A stretch of 19,376 nucleotides of DNA, taken from UHGV virus genome UHGV-1605165; one strand, 5' to 3'. The notes beneath the pieces are model-generated. The model saw nothing but the letters and a program-made list of their open reading frames with translations, made no database searches and was not told where the DNA came from. Positions 9,808 through 18,328 of this stretch are shown piece by piece (position 1 is the first letter of the stretch; the number at the start of each line of letters is the position of its first letter). The stretch comes from a virus. A program made the position numbers and the translations under genes.

Positions 9808-10923
9808 TTAAATCCCTGCTTTTCTGAATACCTGTGCATCACGCTCACGGAGCTGCTTCAGCGTCAGCCATTCGCCTTTATCGGTGTAAAATTCATCTGG
9901 CGACATACCACCATCCCGAATCAGCTTTGCTCGGGTTTCCCCCACAATCTGTTTTTGTCTGGTGTAAGGCTGACGCAAAAACCATTCCCTGTAGGTTGTA
10001 TCTCCGGCCACCACGCCATCCATGCTGGCCCGCTCAGCCGGGGAAATATCGCGAACATCAATACCCAGTTCCTTCGCTGATTTCAGAATGAACGTTTCCG
10101 TTGAGCGGCAGCAGAAATGAATTTTTCCCGGCCCCTGCAAATAAGGCACGCTGTGACCTACAGGTTTATTATTCAGCGTATATTTGAGGCGATCCCTGAT
10201 TCGACATTGTGGCGTAGTACGATTATCAAGCGTTGATAACCATTGCTTACCCTTAATCAAATCATTATTCGCGCTGGCAAAACTCTCACGGGCAGTAGCA
10301 GCAAGATGTCCAACCGCTGTTTTTGCAATGCTGGCCGCATTAGCCCGGCTCATCTGCAATGCACCATCCTGAAATCCCTTACTGACATGTCCCCGAATTT
10401 TTCTTGCGATCTGCTCATTGGTATCCCCCAGCAAAAAACCCTGACGCACTGTATTTGTTATGCGTCTGAGCCGATCCGCCTCAAGATCTGAGGCCCACTC
10501 ACTGAGCAGTCGTCCCTGAAATGGTCGCGCCATTGCAGCGGCATAAAGTGCATCAGGAGAGATACCAACCAGAGGGTGAACATCAGCAACAAAATCAGGT
10601 AGCATAGAATCAAACAGACTTAACTGATAACCAGCCTCATAAATTGCCAGCTCGTTCAGCTCTCCGGAGAGACTGGTAAACATGCTGTTAATAGCAGTGC
10701 GGTTAACCTCTCTGACGCTCGCCAGAAGTGACTCCAGGCGCTTAACGGTAAAACTACCTGGATCGAGGCTGTCCAGTGCTATCAGCAGGCGAGCAGTAAG
10801 TTCCGCATCGCTGTCATTCAGTATTTTCACCATTCTGGCAGCCACGCCAGTGCTATAGCGGGATATCCAGACTGCATGAGCAATTGATTCATCACGCAGC
10901 CGTTCATTCACGGTTTGCATCAT
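9808..10923 (-). CDS. head morphogenesis protein (Mu F / SPP1 gp7-like minor head protein)
   Basis: 371 aa directly downstream of the portal with a 20-nt overlap, the conserved position of this family; ATG 10923. Confidence 0.65.
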   Translation of the reverse strand: MMQTVNERLRDESIAHAVWISRYSTGVAARMVKILNDSDAELTARLLIALDSLDPGSFTVKRLESLLASVREVNRTAINSMFTSLSGELNELAIYEAGYQLSLFDSMLPDFVADVHPLVGISPDALYAAAMARPFQGRLLSEWASDLEADRLRRITNTVRQGFLLGDTNEQIARKIRGHVSKGFQDGALQMSRANAASIAKTAVGHLAATARESFASANNDLIKGKQWLSTLDNRTTPQCRIRDRLKYTLNNKPVGHSVPYLQGPGKIHFCCRSTETFILKSAKELGIDVRDISPAERASMDGVVAGDTTYREWFLRQPYTRQKQIVGETRAKLIRDGGMSPDEFYTDKGEWLTLKQLRERDAQVFRKAGI

Positions 10924-12310
10924 TGATTTCCATCAGCATTACACTCTGATTTTTTAATTCATCGATCACTTCCTCTGGACGGGAATCCTGATCGATAAAT
11001 TTCAACGCCTGCAACACCCGAATCGCATCAATCTGACGTATATCACCGCCCTGACGCAATGACTGAACAGCCAGCGCGGAGGATGAGTCAAACACCTGGG
11101 CAGATACATCCAGTTCAGTGCGCACATCCACATTGCCACCGCAACTCTCTCCGATCCATTCCGCCATTATCTGGAGAATATTATCGAGGGCATCTTCGAG
11201 GGAGTTCGCCATTGTATAAAGCGGCGAGTTTTCCTGCATTCGCTCTTCATTAGTCTGATCAACAGATTTGGTGGATGTATTTTCAGCACGCAGAAGTTTA
11301 GCGCCGGCATGACGCATCTGATTTTCCAGCTTCTCAAGTGATGTTTCGCCAGATTCTATCGCTGCGCCACTATGTTCAACATATTCGAGGCCATTTTTTG
11401 TTCTGTCCTCAAAAATCGTAGCGGTGGATGCACCAACCGTCAGTTCTTCATTCCTGTCCAGCCCGTAGGCCACCAGCAATGGAACGCGGGCAACATGAAG
11501 AATATTGTCCTGCTCGCTCTGGCTTTGCCAGTGCTTGATATTCAGCAAGCCAAGATTAAGCAATGGCGGTGTACCACGCATAAATCCTGTTTTCTTCGTG
11601 TACAGTGTTACCAGAGGAATATCATCACGGCTGGTATTCCATGACTCATGAAGCGTCCAGACAGATTCGCCATTAGTGCCTTCGCTACGTCGATAAATTT
11701 CAACTCGACGGGGCATAATATGGCGGATCTGCTCCACCTTCTTCTGCCCGAAATCATCACCATCAATAATGATGACCTCTTTTATACGCAAATCAGTGAG
11801 AACAACTTTCCCTTTTTCAACTTTCGATTTCCATCCAATAACCTGGCGTGGATTCAGCATCGTAACGTACGGACGACTACCGGCCGCGTTTTCATCGGCT
11901 TTTGTCCGAATCTCTTTCATATCCGTTCGTGGATAGTCCACCAGCGCATGTGCCACACCATACTGAAATGCGAGGCTGAAAAATTGCTGCGCCCACACAT
12001 CCAGTCGGCTCCCCTCCATGTCGATATTTTCTGCATATTCCCTGATTTTTGCCGGCGTTTCCTCACTCAATACTGTCGGCTCTGCAAATATGCGCCCAAT
12101 ATTTTGCTTGATGCTTTCTTCATACACAGGAAGTAGCGTAGCCACAGACAGGCGTTTTTTATAAGCGTCTTCATCTTCGTTAGGCCATTTTGGGAGATAA
12201 TTTTCCCCCTGCCTGCGCATTTCAAGCGTACCGCCCATCAGTGCGTCGTTAATATCCCACGCCTCCAGCATATCGTTATAGTCGAGGTTGGGTGTTGATA
12301 TATCAGCCAT
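10904..12310 (-). CDS. portal protein
   Basis: 468 aa immediately downstream of TerL (stop TAA 12315..12313, ATG 12310); size and position typical of a portal. Confidence 0.75.
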   Translation of the reverse strand: MADISTPNLDYNDMLEAWDINDALMGGTLEMRRQGENYLPKWPNEDEDAYKKRLSVATLLPVYEESIKQNIGRIFAEPTVLSEETPAKIREYAENIDMEGSRLDVWAQQFFSLAFQYGVAHALVDYPRTDMKEIRTKADENAAGSRPYVTMLNPRQVIGWKSKVEKGKVVLTDLRIKEVIIIDGDDFGQKKVEQIRHIMPRRVEIYRRSEGTNGESVWTLHESWNTSRDDIPLVTLYTKKTGFMRGTPPLLNLGLLNIKHWQSQSEQDNILHVARVPLLVAYGLDRNEELTVGASTATIFEDRTKNGLEYVEHSGAAIESGETSLEKLENQMRHAGAKLLRAENTSTKSVDQTNEERMQENSPLYTMANSLEDALDNILQIMAEWIGESCGGNVDVRTELDVSAQVFDSSSALAVQSLRQGGDIRQIDAIRVLQALKFIDQDSRPEEVIDELKNQSVMLMEINDANRE

Positions 12311-12312
12311 AA

Positions 12313-13620
12313 TTAAATCCGAAGTGATGTGACTCTTCCGGTCGGTTTGACAATAGGGAATTGCTTAACGATGAAATAACCTCCGGCATCATTCGGGTGA
12401 TCATTGCCAGATTTTTTATCAGGCTCCCCCTTCTCATCCCAGACCTGTTGCTCCAGAGATTCGGCATATAACGGGCAACGCTTCACATTAACTTTATAGC
12501 GACGCTCACCATTGGCATTGCAGAACATTGCATTCATTGAGTTAACGCGATCTTTTACTGGCGGGTTCGAGCTGTTCACCACAACGTTAAAACCAGCCTG
12601 CTTAAGCTGGGCTATATCCGTCGTACTTGCGTTACTTGATTTTCTGGAATCCCCGGAAGCATCTGGATAAATATAAATTTCCCTCACTTTCCGGTAATCA
12701 TTCCCATCATACAGCCAGAAGCGTTCTTTAATGATGCGGATCATATCCGGCGTATCGTAGGCATTGATGATTTCAGTTACCGCACATGGAAGCCCCAAAC
12801 GCAGCACATGGACGATTCCCGCCATCTTTCCAACGTTAAAATCCATCCCAATATAAATCGGCTCCCCTGGCTGCTCCACTTCTTCGCAATTATTCAGTTT
12901 CCGGTCAAACTGATGGTAAACAGTACCACTTGTCAGGTTAGTAAACTGTCCTCGCAGATAGGCTTTAATCAGCTCTGGAGGGTATGATTCAAGAAGCGAA
13001 GGAATGTAATCTGCTGGCAGGTTCTTTTCATTATCGAAAGTAGATGCCTGCACCAGACCATACAGTGAGGCCAGCTCTGTTTTTTCACGCACGGCTTTAA
13101 CAAACTGCTCGTAGACAAATTTGAATCCTTCCGGCGTGGTTGTAACGTCAATACCGTTGCGAAGTCCATCAATCTTATAACGCATACGCGCAATTATCTT
13201 GCGCCACGCCGTTCTGGCTTTTTCCTTCGGCAAAATGTCCAGTTCATCCACCAACGCATTACCAATTTTGAAACCGACGATCGTTTGTGGCTTCTCCATC
13301 GATCTGCAGATAGTGGTTCCCCGATACTGGCGTCCGTAATAAAAGTGAACCTCTTTATTTCCCTCATTAATTTTTACGTTCAATCCCCAGTCAGCAGCAA
13401 CTTCTTCCACTGTAGGGTAAAAAATATCGCGAATTTGGGGATACGTTGGCGCAAAATATCCCTGATTTATACCTGGATGCTCCCAAATCCCCTTGCATAT
13501 GCCGCCACACCCAACCCATGTTTTGCCCGAGCCAAAACCAGCAATATAGGCTTTAAATTTATGGGGCATTGAAAGAAATCGCGCCTGAGGCACATTAAGC
13601 GTCGGAGAGATCATCTTCAT
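12313..13620 (-). CDS. terminase large subunit
   Basis: Walker A ATPase motif GFGSGKT near the N-terminus; ~435 aa; start probably ATG 13620 or 13614 (AAGGAG upstream), overlapping the TerS 3' end. Confidence 0.85.
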   Translation of the reverse strand: MKMISPTLNVPQARFLSMPHKFKAYIAGFGSGKTWVGCGGICKGIWEHPGINQGYFAPTYPQIRDIFYPTVEEVAADWGLNVKINEGNKEVHFYYGRQYRGTTICRSMEKPQTIVGFKIGNALVDELDILPKEKARTAWRKIIARMRYKIDGLRNGIDVTTTPEGFKFVYEQFVKAVREKTELASLYGLVQASTFDNEKNLPADYIPSLLESYPPELIKAYLRGQFTNLTSGTVYHQFDRKLNNCEEVEQPGEPIYIGMDFNVGKMAGIVHVLRLGLPCAVTEIINAYDTPDMIRIIKERFWLYDGNDYRKVREIYIYPDASGDSRKSSNASTTDIAQLKQAGFNVVVNSSNPPVKDRVNSMNAMFCNANGERRYKVNVKRCPLYAESLEQQVWDEKGEPDKKSGNDHPNDAGGYFIVKQFPIVKPTGRVTSLRI

Positions 13621-14689
13621 CACTCCTTACTCTGGCATCAACCACATTAATATTGATCGCCACAGGCTGGGGATGTTCATTATCTTCCACCGTTTCGATC
13701 TCTTTGCGCAGCTTCTGGTTTTCCATTCTGCGCCGTTCAATTTCCAGTTCCTGTAGCCGCTTATCTGCACATAAAGCCCCGCCAGCAGAAAGCAAACGCA
13801 ACAATTCACGCCGGGCGGCAGCCTTATCCTCCAGCAGGATCTCAACGCCGAATTTTCCGAATTTTGCCCCTGCATATAATTGCCGCGCATCCCCATCAAG
13901 CAGAGTGGTATCAGCCATATAAAGCTGTCCCGTTCCCTCACCGCAGCACTTCGGGCAGTCCGGATTGGGTATGGCGTTATCAACAAAGCCGAGGCCTCCA
14001 TATTCCGGTTCGGGTTTGCCATCTCTGGAAGCCTGCGCCGCTGCCTTGTCGAATTCTGCTATATCGCGCCACTGGTAGAGATGATTCTCGCCCCAGCAAT
14101 AACGGCAGTTAACACGGCGAAATTGTGCAAGCTGATTGGGGTCGGCCAGGACAATGGCCATCAACTGACTCACTAGTAAATCCAGGTCTGCGGTATAGCG
14201 TTTCTGGTACTGATTGCGGAAGTAGCTGATAGCGCGAAAAACCCTGGCATTTCTAAGCATACGACTGGCGTTGCTGTTAGCTGTCGCACCTTGCCCCTCA
14301 TAACCGGCTAGTCGGTACGCCTCTGTCGGCTTTTTACCCTGAGCAACAAGCATCGCAAACTTAGCCTGCTGGTCAGAAATGCCGAATTCATCGGGACAGA
14401 ACGAAAATTCCTCCGCGTCGCCCTCATTCAGGCCCGCATCGAATACTGGCTTTTTTTCCTGAGATTTTTCGTTCCGCTTTTGTGCAGTCTGCGCAGATTT
14501 TTTCTGCGCACTTTTTTGCGCAGTTTTGCGCATTTCTGTCTGCGCATTTTTCGGAGTTTTTTTGATGTAACGACGGGCTGTTGCGTAATTCAGTCCCCTT
14601 GCTTCACACCATGCCACCGGAGATATACCGGAGCGGGTGTATTCAGCAATATACTCCTGCTGCAACGCCCCCCAGTCCGGTCTGCTCAT
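13595..14689 (-). CDS. terminase small subunit (atypically long, 364 aa)
   Basis: Central segment MLVAQGKKPTEAYRLAGYEGQGATANSNASRMLRNARVFRAISYF resembles the TerS HTH (Terminase_2-like). Also has an N-terminal HTH-like segment, a Lys/Gln-rich low-complexity linker and a Cys cluster (CRYC...CPKCC). Directly upstream of TerL. Confidence 0.6.
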   Translation of the reverse strand: MSRPDWGALQQEYIAEYTRSGISPVAWCEARGLNYATARRYIKKTPKNAQTEMRKTAQKSAQKKSAQTAQKRNEKSQEKKPVFDAGLNEGDAEEFSFCPDEFGISDQQAKFAMLVAQGKKPTEAYRLAGYEGQGATANSNASRMLRNARVFRAISYFRNQYQKRYTADLDLLVSQLMAIVLADPNQLAQFRRVNCRYCWGENHLYQWRDIAEFDKAAAQASRDGKPEPEYGGLGFVDNAIPNPDCPKCCGEGTGQLYMADTTLLDGDARQLYAGAKFGKFGVEILLEDKAAARRELLRLLSAGGALCADKRLQELEIERRRMENQKLRKEIETVEDNEHPQPVAININVVDARVRSDEDDLSDA

Positions 14690-14692
14690 CAG

Positions 14693-14944
14693 TTAGTCCT
14701 GATTTTTATCCACCCTGAGTAGTTCGCGCAGAGCAAAGGCATCCCCTTTTCTGGCAAGCTTAAACAATGCCGCTCGTAACTCGGCTTCACCTTTCGCTCT
14801 GCCCTTACGGATGGCCGCATAAAAATCTGTCATTGCTTCCCGATTTTCTTTCAGTCGGTTCAGATCAACATCCAGAACGTCAGCGATTTGTTGTGCAGTC
14901 ATCCGGCACGCTGCCAGAGACTCGACTTTCGAATACGGAATCAT
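14693..14944 (-). CDS. small HTH-like DNA-binding protein (83 aa), translationally coupled to TerS
   Basis: Stop TAA 14695..14693 lies 3 nt before the TerS ATG. QQIADVLDVDLNRL resembles winged-HTH openings such as lambda Nu1 KQLADIFGASIRTI. ATG 14944 has a GGGGG stretch upstream, but the gene overlaps the preceding gene by 65 nt, so the start is uncertain. Confidence 0.4.
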   Translation of the reverse strand: MIPYSKVESLAACRMTAQQIADVLDVDLNRLKENREAMTDFYAAIRKGRAKGEAELRAALFKLARKGDAFALRELLRVDKNQD

Positions 14945-15812
14945 TTGTCACCCCCATTGATATGCAGGGTGTCTTCTTCCTGTATTTTTCGTGAAGGATT
15001 TTTACTGCAGCGTTGTTCCAGGTGACCTGATGGTGAATGCGTTTATGGCTGGCACCCATCAGTGAAATTTTTACGCACGACGGCGCATACATGACGGAGT
15101 AAAAACTTTTAACGTAGGTTCCGGAATCCAGATACAGCTCGGTCATTCCGCCGCTGTTTTTCTGCGTCTGTTTCTGCCCTAACTGGACAGCACCGATCGT
15201 CATAAACAATTCACCACAGCGACCGAGATTCGTGTACGTATTCACATCCTCGTTAATGCGCCCCATGAATGAGAACGGTCGATCAACCGAACAGATAAAG
15301 CTGTTCATTGCCTTGCGTTTCACCCACGAAGCATGGCCGCCATTGTCACCAAGAAAATCCCCGCCCTGCGACATAGCGATGGAAAGAGCAGGTATTGATT
15401 CGTAGTACGCCAGCATTTCAGAAAGGATCGCATCCAGTTTCCTTATCGGAAAATAGGCCTGGTCATAGTTGCGATCCACCCGAAACTGGAACTCGTGATA
15501 ATCATCATCGAGCTGAATGAAGTATTTACACCCGACCAGTTTTGCCAGGTCGAAACAGGCATTACGGGCGTAAAAAATTGAGCGGCGGTCACAGAAATTA
15601 TCGGCTTCGTCAAAACGACTGGCGATATCGGCTTTGGAAAACACCAGCACCTGTTCACCAAATTCAGCCATGTACTGATGCCGTGTCTTATCTTCATCAT
15701 CAACAACGATAAAAATTTTCCCGGTATAGCCAGCACGACGCAACGTCCGGTAAGTCAGAACTTTGTCCGGTCGCCCGTGAGTCAGAATAAAGGCGCAAAA
15801 ATCATCACGCAT
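14880..15812 (-). CDS. GT-A-fold glycosyltransferase-like protein (nucleotide-sugar transferase-like), function unknown
   Basis: Likely start ATG 15812 (MRDDFCAFILTHGRPDK...) preceded by GAGGAGGAGGAA. Motif series CAFILTHGRPD, KIFIVVDDEDKT and YFIQLDDDYHEF follows the GT2/GT-A pattern (beta1, IVVDDxS/T box, DxD). No transmembrane segment evident. Confidence 0.5.
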   Translation of the reverse strand: MRDDFCAFILTHGRPDKVLTYRTLRRAGYTGKIFIVVDDEDKTRHQYMAEFGEQVLVFSKADIASRFDEADNFCDRRSIFYARNACFDLAKLVGCKYFIQLDDDYHEFQFRVDRNYDQAYFPIRKLDAILSEMLAYYESIPALSIAMSQGGDFLGDNGGHASWVKRKAMNSFICSVDRPFSFMGRINEDVNTYTNLGRCGELFMTIGAVQLGQKQTQKNSGGMTELYLDSGTYVKSFYSVMYAPSCVKISLMGASHKRIHHQVTWNNAAVKILHEKYRKKTPCISMGVTNDSVFESRVSGSVPDDCTTNR

Positions 15813-16596
15813 ATTCCTCCTCCTCACCACCATGCATGATCTCCACCATGCGCTGCGTCATCCGGACAAATCCATTTTCAATAGCCTGCTGATAATCAAT
15901 GATCACCAGCGCCGACTCCTCGAAAAAACACTGAATTTCAGAGGGGGCGTGAGCGTAATAGTCCGCAATTCTGCTGAAATTAAACACCGTGTGACGTTCT
16001 GCCGCACACAGGAGGAATTTCTCAATATCAGGCTCAAGGGACGCCGAACGTATCCGGCTGATCAGCTCCTGAGTTTTCGTATCGTCGTACAGTTCACTGA
16101 TATCCGGTTTACCGCCCGACGGCTCATAAACAGGCGTATCAATTTTCGTCGTATACGGCTCCTCCTCATTTCCTGTACCGGGCAAAACATCCGTCAACAG
16201 TTCATCAATTTCTGTCGGGATGAAGCCTGTCAGGGAGACATCAAAATCAGCATTGATTAGGTCCGACAGCTCCATCCGCAACAGATCTTCATCCCAGCCA
16301 GCATTCATCGGCAGGCGATTATCTGCCAGGCGGTACGCCTTTTTCTGCTCATCCGTCAGGCCAGACAGAACAATGACCGGAACAGAATCCATTTTGAGCA
16401 TTTCAGCCGCCATAACACGACCGTGACCCGCAATAATTTCGCCCTTTTCGTCAATCAGCACCGGATTAGTCCAGCCGAATTGCTTAATACTTTCTACCAG
16501 TTGTGCCACCTGCTCAGTACTGTGCGTCCTGGCGTTGTGCGCATACGGTGACAATTCTTGTAATGGGCGATAGACTATCTTTAATTTCTCGCTCAT
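15805..16596 (-). CDS. ParB/Srx-like nuclease-domain protein
   Basis: N-terminal SPYAHNARTHSTEQVAQLVESIKQFGWTNPVLIDEKGEIIAGHGRVMAAEMLKMDSVPVIV matches the ParB N-terminal domain signature (GxxR box). ~160-aa acidic C-terminal region with no motif I recognise. ATG 16596. Confidence 0.7.
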   Translation of the reverse strand: MSEKLKIVYRPLQELSPYAHNARTHSTEQVAQLVESIKQFGWTNPVLIDEKGEIIAGHGRVMAAEMLKMDSVPVIVLSGLTDEQKKAYRLADNRLPMNAGWDEDLLRMELSDLINADFDVSLTGFIPTEIDELLTDVLPGTGNEEEPYTTKIDTPVYEPSGGKPDISELYDDTKTQELISRIRSASLEPDIEKFLLCAAERHTVFNFSRIADYYAHAPSEIQCFFEESALVIIDYQQAIENGFVRMTQRMVEIMHGGEEEEYA

Positions 16597-16733: not shown

Positions 16734-18191
16734 TTAGGAGCGCCAAAAAAAACCTGAAAACAATATAATAACAGGATAAATTTCAAGGCGACCAAGAATC
16801 ATAGCTATGCACATTAAACATTTTGCAATGTCATTAAGCACTCCGAATGACGATGCAGTAGCCCCAAAACCTAATCCCATATTATTAATACATGCAGCCA
16901 CTGTTGCAAATGATGTAAGAAAATCATATCCCATACCATTTAACACCAGTATAAAAAACACCGTGAAGAGAGTATAAAGAAAAAAGAAACTCCATACAGA
17001 CCTCATTACACGATCTGTAACTATCTTCCCTCCTACATTTACACTCAACAACGCTCTGGGATGAGAAAGCTGATTTATCTCGTGTTTGCTTTGTTTGAAA
17101 AGTATAAGAAATCGAAGTGACTTAATTCCACCACAAGTTGAACCTATACATCCCCCAAAGAAACTTGACAACAGCAAAAACACTATCGTGTGCGTGGGCC
17201 AACTTGCATAATCCTGCGTAGCTAAACCATTATCAGTGAGCATGGAGCTGGCAAGAAAAAACGAATGAATAAAACTTCCATGCAAGTCATACATACCTAT
17301 ATGCCAGACCTGGAAAGAGGTAACAATGATCACACCTAAGGCTATTAACAGAAAGAAACGAAGTTCAATATCTCTGATTAAAGGTTTTATCGTTTTCCTG
17401 CTAATAACAATATACCAAAGAGTGAAGTTGAAAGCCGATAGCAGGGAAAAAGAACCAGCCACCAGCTCAACCAAATAGTTATTAAAATATCCGATACTCT
17501 CGCTATGAGTTGAGAAACCACCAAGCGAAACTGTGGAAATCCCGTGACAAATAGCATCAAACAAAGGCATTCCTGCAAGTCTATAACAGACAATACAAGC
17601 AATACCTAATAAAGAATAAGTTATCCACAGTGTCCGTGACGTATCGGCCAGGCGGGGAGTGAGTTTGTCATCCTTAAATGGCCCCGGCATTTCTGACTGA
17701 TAAAGCTTTGCACCACCAATACCCAATAATGGCAATACAGCAACCGCCAGAACAATAACTCCTAAACCACCTATAAAATTTAACTGTGACCGATAGTACA
17801 AATATGCCCGAGGTAATGAACTAACATCATCAATTACAGTTGCTCCTGTTGTTGTTATTCCAGAAACCCCTTCAAACAGAGCATCAATGAACGTTAAATT
17901 AAGTTCTGAGTCAATCCATAAAGGGAATGCACTAATAACAGAAAACAAAATCCAAAACATTACAATTATAATAAACCCATCACGGGTACGTAATTGAATG
18001 CCAGATTTCTTAGTTGTATACCACGCTCCGCCACCAATGCAAAAAAATATAACGAAAGTTATAAAGAAAACAAACAGGCTTTTTTCTTTATAAAACAATG
18101 CTACAACCATTGGTGGCAACATTGAAAGACTATAGAGCCAAACCAGGAACCCACACATATGAGTAACAACTCTTACATGAGATGTATTCAT
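16734..18191 (-). CDS. trkG: Trk-system K+ uptake protein TrkG (TrkH family), prophage moron
   Basis: Polytopic membrane protein with TrkH-family segments FEGVSGITTTGATV, GGLGVIVLAVAVLPLLGIGGAKLYQSEMPGPFKDDKLTPRLADT and C-terminal GRLEIYPVIILFSGFFWRS. Likely start ATG 18191 (MNTSHVRVV..., 485 aa) rather than the TTG at 18209. Markedly AT-rich compared with flanks. E. coli K-12 trkG lies in the Rac prophage next to Rz-like genes. Confidence 0.9.
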   Translation of the reverse strand: MNTSHVRVVTHMCGFLVWLYSLSMLPPMVVALFYKEKSLFVFFITFVIFFCIGGGAWYTTKKSGIQLRTRDGFIIIVMFWILFSVISAFPLWIDSELNLTFIDALFEGVSGITTTGATVIDDVSSLPRAYLYYRSQLNFIGGLGVIVLAVAVLPLLGIGGAKLYQSEMPGPFKDDKLTPRLADTSRTLWITYSLLGIACIVCYRLAGMPLFDAICHGISTVSLGGFSTHSESIGYFNNYLVELVAGSFSLLSAFNFTLWYIVISRKTIKPLIRDIELRFFLLIALGVIIVTSFQVWHIGMYDLHGSFIHSFFLASSMLTDNGLATQDYASWPTHTIVFLLLSSFFGGCIGSTCGGIKSLRFLILFKQSKHEINQLSHPRALLSVNVGGKIVTDRVMRSVWSFFFLYTLFTVFFILVLNGMGYDFLTSFATVAACINNMGLGFGATASSFGVLNDIAKCLMCIAMILGRLEIYPVIILFSGFFWRS

Positions 18192-18328
18192 ATCTAAATA
18201 TTCTTTCAATTATAACCACCTTGCTGCAATATTATGATTATACTGTATAAAATTTAACTCCTCTTAGATCTTACTTCACTGTTCCTTATGAAACAATCAT
18301 CAAAATGAATCATATTGTAGTTAAGATT

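Follow-up and report, generated by a model that had tools for sequence, protein, structure and literature searches.

The small-terminase gene and its hexamer array

The stretch of DNA analysed here, UHGV-1605165, is referred to throughout as the window; its 19,376 nucleotides contain the late region of a Rac-like, intact lambdoid prophage of Escherichia coli, all of the genes that we list lie on the minus strand, and it entered our comparison set as IMG/VR locus L043. Our subject is a dense array of the hexamer TGCGCA situated in the 5' part of the gene for the small terminase, TerS, together with the N-terminal domain that the same gene encodes just ahead of the array. TerS lies directly upstream of the large terminase gene, TerL, on the same strand and overlapping it, which is the gene order of Terminase_2-type small terminases. 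A near-identical annotated prophage carries the usual Rac genes, int, ralR, recT, recE, kil and sieB, and after them the late block of the window. Of 5,426 complete E. coli genomes, 912 have the 5' segment of TerS with the array in it. The features relevant to the argument are the following.

13595-14689, minus strand: TerS, small terminase (364 amino acids), with Terminase_2 at residues 122-321 and an invariant Cys4 insertion
12313-13623, minus strand: TerL, large terminase, with Terminase_6N and Terminase_6C; overlaps the end of TerS
14558..14689, minus strand: coding region of the N-terminal helix-turn-helix (HTH) module, residues 1-44, ..GLNYATARRYIKK; proposed reader of the hexamers
14408..14557, minus strand: coding region of the low-complexity basic linker, residues 45-94; contains the array
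14481..14546: whole array, the proposed TerS recognition (pac) site; 66 base pairs (bp), gene nucleotides 144-209
14541..14546: hexamer 1, TGCGCA; gene nucleotides 144-149; codons AAT-GCG-CAG, N-A-Q
14527..14532: hexamer 2, TGCGCA in the other reading frame; ATG-CGC-AAA, M-R-K
14517..14522: hexamer 3, TGCGCA; ACT-GCG-CAA, T-A-Q
14505..14510: hexamer 4, TGCGCA; AGT-GCG-CAG, S-A-Q
14490..14495: hexamer 5, TGCGCA; TCT-GCG-CAG, S-A-Q
14481..14486: sixth, degenerate hexamer, TGTGCA on the plus strand and TGCACA on the coding strand
14451..14563, plus strand: T-runs at 14451-57, 14465-69, 14498-503, 14512-16, 14524-26, 14547-51 and 14557-63

An earlier note, made from the letters alone, had placed five TGCGCA hexamers at 14490, 14505, 14517, 14527 and 14541, and a check of the sequence finds all five starts exact. 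The same note had each hexamer followed by a run of four to seven T; the runs are real, but their lengths extend from T3 to T7 and up to two bases may intervene, since GA and then T6 follow the copy at 14490, C and then T6 that at 14505, and G and then T4 that at 14517, while the copy at 14527 is followed by T3 only and that at 14541 by T5. Further tracts that it had reported are present at 14451-14457 (T7), 14465-14469 (T5) and 14557-14563 (T7). The start-to-start spacings within the array are 14, 10, 12, 15 and 9 bp. Four of the five exact hexamers are framed xxT-GCG-CAx and encode Ala-Gln; the copy at 14527 is framed A-TGC-GCA-AA (Met-Arg-Lys), and because it is read in a different frame, duplication of a peptide repeat hardly explains the array. 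This second hexamer is absent in relatives with a common Met-Cys-Lys variant, and the position of the sixth (gene nucleotide 204) is an exact TGCGCA in many relatives.

The clustering is exceptional for the window, where TGCGCA occurs in six further copies only, the nearest of them about 780 bp off, at 13705; in a near-identical 38.7-kb prophage, too, the array in TerS is the sole TGCGCA cluster. With five copies in 60 bp it ranks first among all hexamers scanned in the window, and none of 100 first-order Markov random sequences reached a five-copy cluster. When residues 45-76 were recoded synonymously with the codon usage of the window, the mean number of TGCGCA was 0.69 and at least five copies arose in 13 of 200,000 recodings (P about 6.5e-5), so that the observed number is about seven times what the protein demands. 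The same cannot be said of the T-runs, which on the coding strand are A-runs that flank and intersperse the array and correspond mostly to Lys codons: six runs of at least A4 are observed, within the range given by synonymous recoding. The A-runs are thus largely explained by their Lys codons, and a role in DNA bending is only conjectural.

At the level of the protein, the array lies wholly within DNA that encodes the linker, whose translation as ..KNAQTEMRKTAQKSAQKKSAQTAQKR.. in the earlier note is correct. An AlphaFold2 model, built on a shallow alignment of 11 sequences, has a mean predicted local distance difference test score (pLDDT) of 49 and is usable for residues 1-44 and 99-160 only. 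The former appear as three helices (pLDDT 70-78) and the latter as a second small helical domain (pLDDT 75-89), the intervening residues 45-94, at a pLDDT below 50, are probably a flexible, disordered linker, and the oligomerisation core is modelled poorly. With its low pLDDT, and with no stop codon across the array in any of the three coding-strand frames, this segment can tolerate a constraint at the level of the DNA. Full-length TerS matches phrog_51 (E=2.9e-76), and its match to Terminase_2 (PF03592) at residues 122-321 scores 35.9 bits against a cut-off of 26.1; a sequence search of the PDB gives one weak match, over residues 108-179 (profile E=0.0013), to 21di, the solved and distantly related small terminase of Pam5, whose entry has nine chains. 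Pfam holds no family for the N-terminal domain of the type found in the window, and the other HTH classes described below give only weak, generic HTH matches.

Paired exchange of N-terminal domains and repeat motifs

A scan of genome contigs yielded four loci only, and the diversity described here is drawn from IMG/VR scans. Every relative with an N-terminal HTH of the ..TARRYIKK type, which we call class A, carries 4-10 copies of TGCGCA just downstream of it; the copies occupy each of the three codon phases, and the pairing extends over three or more unrelated TerS scaffolds. Among 100 distinct arrays that follow a class-A HTH (4-10 copies, median span 66 bp), the codon phases number 436/102/32 and the array starts at a median of 17 nucleotides past the HTH signature. 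Class-A homologues recovered by protein similarity alone likewise contain at least four copies each; the TerS of Serratia fonticola, for example, is 53% identical to that of the window, retains the same ..NYATARRYIKK helix and has five TGCGCA, two of them in an alternative frame in which they encode EMRN and ELRT.

Other HTH classes carry other arrays, which occupy the same place in TerS and also cross reading frames.

HTH ..ITIKALRYMAGKKGW: array of GGGGCA three to four times, then TGCCCC two to three times
HTH ..AIRKRAKKHGW: array GGTACGCA
HTH ..AIRKKAKAEDW: array GTTCGC/GCGAAC
HTH ..TLIDLARKRGW: array CCGACC, then GGTCGG
Locus L141: array TGGAAAC/GTTTCCA

Of these, the AIRKRAK-type HTH class pairs with a GTACGC array, and similar recognition helices are found with similar motifs (GTACGC versus GTTCGC, CCGACC versus CCGTCC). 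Inverted copies encode unrelated peptides, and selection must consequently act on the DNA. In the classes with a non-palindromic motif (L094, L106, L142, L109 and L141) a forward block is usually followed by an inverted block, as in GGGGCA three times and then TGCCCC three times; this convergent layout is reminiscent of the two hexamer groups of the P1 pac site discussed below.

Mosaic proteins separate the contribution of the N-terminal domain from that of the rest of TerS. Compared with the window type, L141 has identities of 98% for the Terminase_2 HTH, 96% for the core and only 14% for the N-terminal HTH, and its motif differs; conversely, L125 and L129 combine a class-A N-terminal HTH and TGCGCA with a Terminase_2 HTH whose identity to its counterpart in a phage with GTACGC is 75%. 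From these three mosaics it follows that the motif tracks the N-terminal module and not the canonical Terminase_2 DNA-binding domain. A tblastn search also turned up otherwise unrelated small terminases that share the N-terminal module alone: in the Stx-type phage GER2 (ARRYIK) there are five TGCGCA in three frames and in Aeromonas phiARM81mr (ARRYLK) seven, and the small terminases of both belong to phrog_370, not phrog_51. Pasteurella Pmp11 (AKRYIKK) carries nine TGCGAA and Klebsiella RothC (AKRYIK) six TGCGAA/TTCGCA.

The latter two cases point to a substitution in the helix that is accompanied by a substitution in the hexamer. With all loci pooled, at least three TGCGCA occur in 102 of 104 ARR[YH] contexts and at least three TGCGAA in none of the 104, and the five AKR[YH] contexts all show the reverse, TGCGAA and not TGCGCA. 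The HTH of RothC is 87% identical to an R-type domain and 82% identical to the nearest K-type domain, which indicates that the K-type HTHs are polyphyletic and, therefore, that the switch of one residue and of one base per hexamer arose more than once. The association also holds when the search starts from the DNA. Among 72 distinct IMG/VR contexts with three closely spaced TGCGCA, 45 lie just after an ARRY HTH in TerS-like open reading frames (ORFs) and about six more after an ARRH or truncated HTH; for TGCGAA, 5 of 119 follow an HTH, all of them AKR[YH]; and for GTACGC, 32 of 111 lie just after an AIRKRAK HTH, including contexts with a different TerS body of about 210 residues. What is left over consists of coding repeats in tandem and of sequence that is GC-rich or from giant viruses.

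These comparisons bear on three explanations of the array that do not involve packaging. The first is that the repeats are coding sequence and nothing else, an Ala-Gln-Lys low-complexity linker expanded by replication slippage and devoid of any function at the DNA level, as might be suspected from a basic low-complexity linker that is modelled at low confidence and from the fact that copy number among relatives varies by whole repeat units. Yet the hexamer is kept in three codon phases that yield different peptides (AQ, [MLV]R[KTN] and CA), its synonymous positions are fixed, the inverted copies of other classes are beyond the reach of slippage, and all copies switch together to TGCGAA in the AKRY lineages. 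The use of several frames, the inverted copies and the concerted switch thus contradict a repeat that is purely coding, and we give this explanation virtually no credence. The earlier note had left it as an alternative whether the repeats merely encode a linker or double as a packaging site; the comparative data favour the latter, the motif being kept across frames, proteins and scaffolds, and the flexible-linker reading is likewise true but secondary.

A second explanation would have the paired palindromic hexamers act as single strands, in the form of mRNA hairpins or antisense terminators. Indeed, the RNA fold of 14470-14570 reaches -31.7 kcal/mol (z=-5.1), the plus strand has four terminator-like sites of a hairpin and a T-run (14479-14546) where 1.2 are expected, and arrays with inverted copies fold well too (z of -4). 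The direct TGCGAA arrays of the closest functional relatives, however, show no excess structure (z=+0.75 and 0.01); the ability to fold is thus a consequence of having a motif that is palindromic or inverted, and the cassette of HTH and array does not conserve it. We have accordingly rejected hairpins or antisense terminators as the conserved role, regarding them as a by-product of the palindromic motif, and a function of this kind is scarcely probable.

The third explanation, that the array is a target of DNA modification or of a factor other than TerS, finds some encouragement in the sequence, since TGCGCA contains GCGC and could be subject to methylation or restriction at this core. TGCGCA is also a type II restriction site. 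Moreover, genes for a ParB_N protein and a TET-associated-glycosyltransferase-like (TAGT-like) protein, as well as an ORF of 83 amino acids with an HTH-like segment, lie just upstream, so that a ParB-like, glycosyltransferase-like or small HTH protein could be envisaged as the binding factor. Against this, close relatives use TGCGAA, which lacks GCGC, other classes use unrelated motifs, and the motif tracks the N-terminal HTH of TerS even where the scaffold neighbours differ. Given the TGCGAA relatives, and with no methyltransferase detected among the seven window ORFs scanned, control by GCGC methylation, in analogy to Dam in P1, was rejected, and the explanation as a whole is very unlikely.

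Comparison with known packaging systems and the proposed function

The closest precedent is phage P1, in which seven TGATCA/G hexamers are established elements of pac, and synonymous mutation of these hexamers cuts P1 packaging about nine-fold (PMC10028697; PMC11260489). In P1 pacA the hexamers lie at gene nucleotides 194-233 and 324-380, downstream of the HTH and in two reading frames, and the two groups flank an annotated site for integration host factor (IHF) and the cleavage sites (276-285). Residues 6-79 of TerS match phrog_1711, the P1 PacA family (E=3.8e-5); P1 PacA itself matches phrog_1711 with E=4e-202, and its N-terminus, which reads ..NLNPNTARRYLRAF and whose HTH contains ..NTARRYL.., matches phrog_370 (1.9e-4). 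The two systems share palindromic hexamers of the TGNNCA type, repeated near the 5' end of the gene for the small terminase and just past the codons of a ..TARRY[IL].. HTH, the use of more than one reading frame, and N-terminal modules related at the profile level. They differ in that P1 TGATCA/G contains the Dam site GATC, which gates cleavage, whereas no hexamer of the array contains GATC, so that Dam control would be absent; in that P1 has two groups (four and three hexamers) about 90 bp apart around the IHF and cleavage sites, as opposed to one 66-bp cluster; in that no IHF consensus, WATCAANNNNTTR, is matched in 14250-14720; and in that the rest of PacA (phrog_1711) is unrelated to the Terminase_2 body (phrog_51).

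Phage lambda offers two partial parallels. At cosB, a short site is present in several copies, and its reader is the N-terminal HTH of a small terminase that is oligomeric: the winged HTH of gpNu1 reads the R-sites and positions the large subunit for the nearby cut. Lambda, however, is a cos system with exact ends, its R sites are 16 bp long and situated in noncoding DNA, and it depends on IHF. In the lambda origin, repeats that the N-terminal DNA-binding domain of a protein recognizes lie next to an A/T-rich stretch and within DNA that encodes the flexible interdomain linker of that very protein, the architecture proposed for the array; these iterons of gene O, however, belong to a replication origin, not to packaging, and to an unrelated protein family.

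Among headful phages, P22 resembles the window in having its recognition site within the small-terminase gene (PMC9611059). Its pac is nonetheless a single asymmetric 22-bp site without repeats and is associated with another TerS family, unlike the repeated palindromic hexamer described here. SPP1 and SF6 share with the window the Pfam family of the TerS body, PF03592, and their pac, too, is located in the region of the TerS gene, where TerS makes contact at multiple points and the DNA is bent (PMC9611059), but G1P of SPP1 lacks the additional N-terminal HTH and linker, and pacL and pacR are different sequences that flank the cleavage region. How TerS recognizes pac has been described as unclear, specific binding being hard to demonstrate for P22, Sf6, SPP1 and SF6 (PMC9611059). 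Indirect signs of headful packaging in the phage of the window are that its TerS core is shared with phage F116, which is known as a generalized transducer, and that its TerL has Terminase_6N/6C domains.

Taken together, these observations suggest that the array at 14481-14546 is very likely the TerS recognition part of pac in this Rac-like prophage. We favour such a docking function for two reasons: related phages swap the N-terminal domain and the repeat motif together, and the module is related to that of P1 PacA, which has proven pac hexamers at an equivalent position. By analogy, the array may be regarded as the positional and architectural counterpart of P1 pac, P1-like in a new form.

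The paired exchange demonstrates that the HTH and the array belong together but not what the binding does, and it is conceivable that the HTH binds the hexamers in order to regulate the terminase or late operon, by autoregulation or as a roadblock, and not for packaging; an HTH protein that binds repeats within its own gene or close to it is, after all, a typical autoregulator. We nevertheless deem this unlikely, inasmuch as the protein is a small terminase adjoining TerL, the homologous module of P1 serves a proven pac site, the arrays are located in the coding region and not at a promoter (with no sigma-70-like site in 14200-15000), and in all of the families examined the cassette is joined to proteins of the TerS type and to no others. 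The two roles are, moreover, compatible and not mutually exclusive.

Several points weigh against a packaging function. The homology to PacA is visible at the profile level only (E about 1e-4 to 1e-5), with a pairwise BLASTP E of 0.005 and ..TARRY.. present in both proteins; P1 PacA, furthermore, shares the TARRY helix yet uses TGATCA, from which it follows that the R/K position alone does not set specificity. Natural variants carry 4-6 copies, so that individual hexamers are dispensable. The HTH adjoins the array, and part of the apparent co-variation is plain linkage; linkage accounts for co-inheritance but does not explain the existence of the arrays or the uniformity of their copies. Finally, the case for the TGCGCA arrays is one of sequence comparison, the 'phages' in GenBank that carry this TerS are in-silico prophage predictions, and the structure model is of low confidence (mean pLDDT 49) apart from two small domains.

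If the array is the docking part of pac, several N-terminal HTHs of one TerS oligomer would bind a hexamer apiece. Any genome contains many isolated TGCGCA, and avidity would for this reason be needed: specificity would come from five or six copies within about 65 bp being bound at once, with the flexible linkers accommodating the irregular spacing of 9-15 bp. Bound TerS would then recruit TerL via its C-terminal tail, TerL would cut nearby, and headful packaging would proceed from there, by analogy with P22, SPP1 and P1 towards terL and the head genes, that is, towards lower window coordinates.

A broader proposition, to which we incline on balance and with appreciable reservation, is that the HTH and the linker-embedded array constitute a self-contained, exchangeable cassette of packaging specificity that can be read from sequence and has moved between unrelated TerS scaffolds. 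These scaffolds would comprise phrog_51, phrog_370, the PacA family and the TerS of about 210 residues, and the code would run ARRY-TGCGCA, AKRY-TGCGAA, AIRKRAK-GTACGC, and so on. To our knowledge every pac phage has a pac site, and the array itself is for that reason an expected kind of element; what appears to be new beyond the single element is the clean and general co-variation of domain and motif seen in the alignments. In our literature search we found no paper linking TGCGCA arrays to a phage terminase, none on the pac site of Rac or Rac-like phages and none in which HTH modules of the PacA type are paired, in different TerS families, with repeat arrays embedded in the linker, and a recent nanopore study of capsid DNA does not mention Rac. 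This TerS family thus offers a pairing of protein domain and DNA motif that is readable from sequence and includes natural switches of specificity. Should the cassette hold true, the pac sites of thousands of prophages could be predicted in silico, and the joint exchange of one residue and one base would suffice to reprogram the specificity of packaging. If the array is pac, it would mark the start of in-situ packaging and of lateral transduction of the flanking chromosome in the strains of those 912 genomes, and would provide a compact element with which to render plasmids transducible or to block their transduction.

Variation within TerS and neighbouring genes

Other parts of TerS are also of interest. 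Inside the Terminase_2 body, residues 195-249 (window 13943-14107, minus strand) contain an invariant four-cysteine motif (CRYCWGENH ... CPKCCGEG) that looks like a zinc ribbon, and the Cys4-bearing core can also be aligned to its counterpart in F116-like phages of Pseudomonas, whose TerS is devoid of the N-terminal HTH and linker. At the C-terminus (13595-13790, minus strand) two unrelated tails alternate among relatives that are more than 85% identical elsewhere, which suggests a modular exchange of the TerL-docking end. Many database copies of TerS have compensated frameshifts in the A-runs of the segment 14440-14575 (minus strand), such as ..LRKMRRQKCAKLRKKCAEK..; the copies in question are mostly singletons from read-assembly sources, and the frameshifts are probably homopolymer errors, even if the segment would tolerate real slippage.

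The remaining genes of the window considered here are the following.

10904-12310, minus strand: portal, DUF4055
14693-14944, minus strand: ORF of 83 amino acids directly upstream of TerS, with the HTH-like segment MTAQQIADVLDVDLNRL
14880-15833, minus strand: TAGT-like gene (PF20691, E=3.8e-35; phrog_842)
15805-16596, minus strand: ParB_N protein (PF02195; phrog_620)
16734-18209, minus strand: trkG, full-length (TrkH family, E=5e-145)

The 83-amino-acid ORF matches a central part (residues 145-218 of 319) of phrog_309, another family of small terminases, with E=8e-23; it may encode a further DNA-binding protein with a role in packaging, or what is left of such a protein. The glycosyltransferase-like and ParB_N genes are placed between trkG and the terminase genes and may form a DNA-modification or anti-defence pair; neither a TET nor a methyltransferase domain was detected among the seven window ORFs scanned, and we take the truncated ynaK of K-12 Rac to be a possible counterpart of the ParB-like gene. 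Within the prophage, trkG separates the lysis genes from those for packaging, as it does in K-12 Rac.

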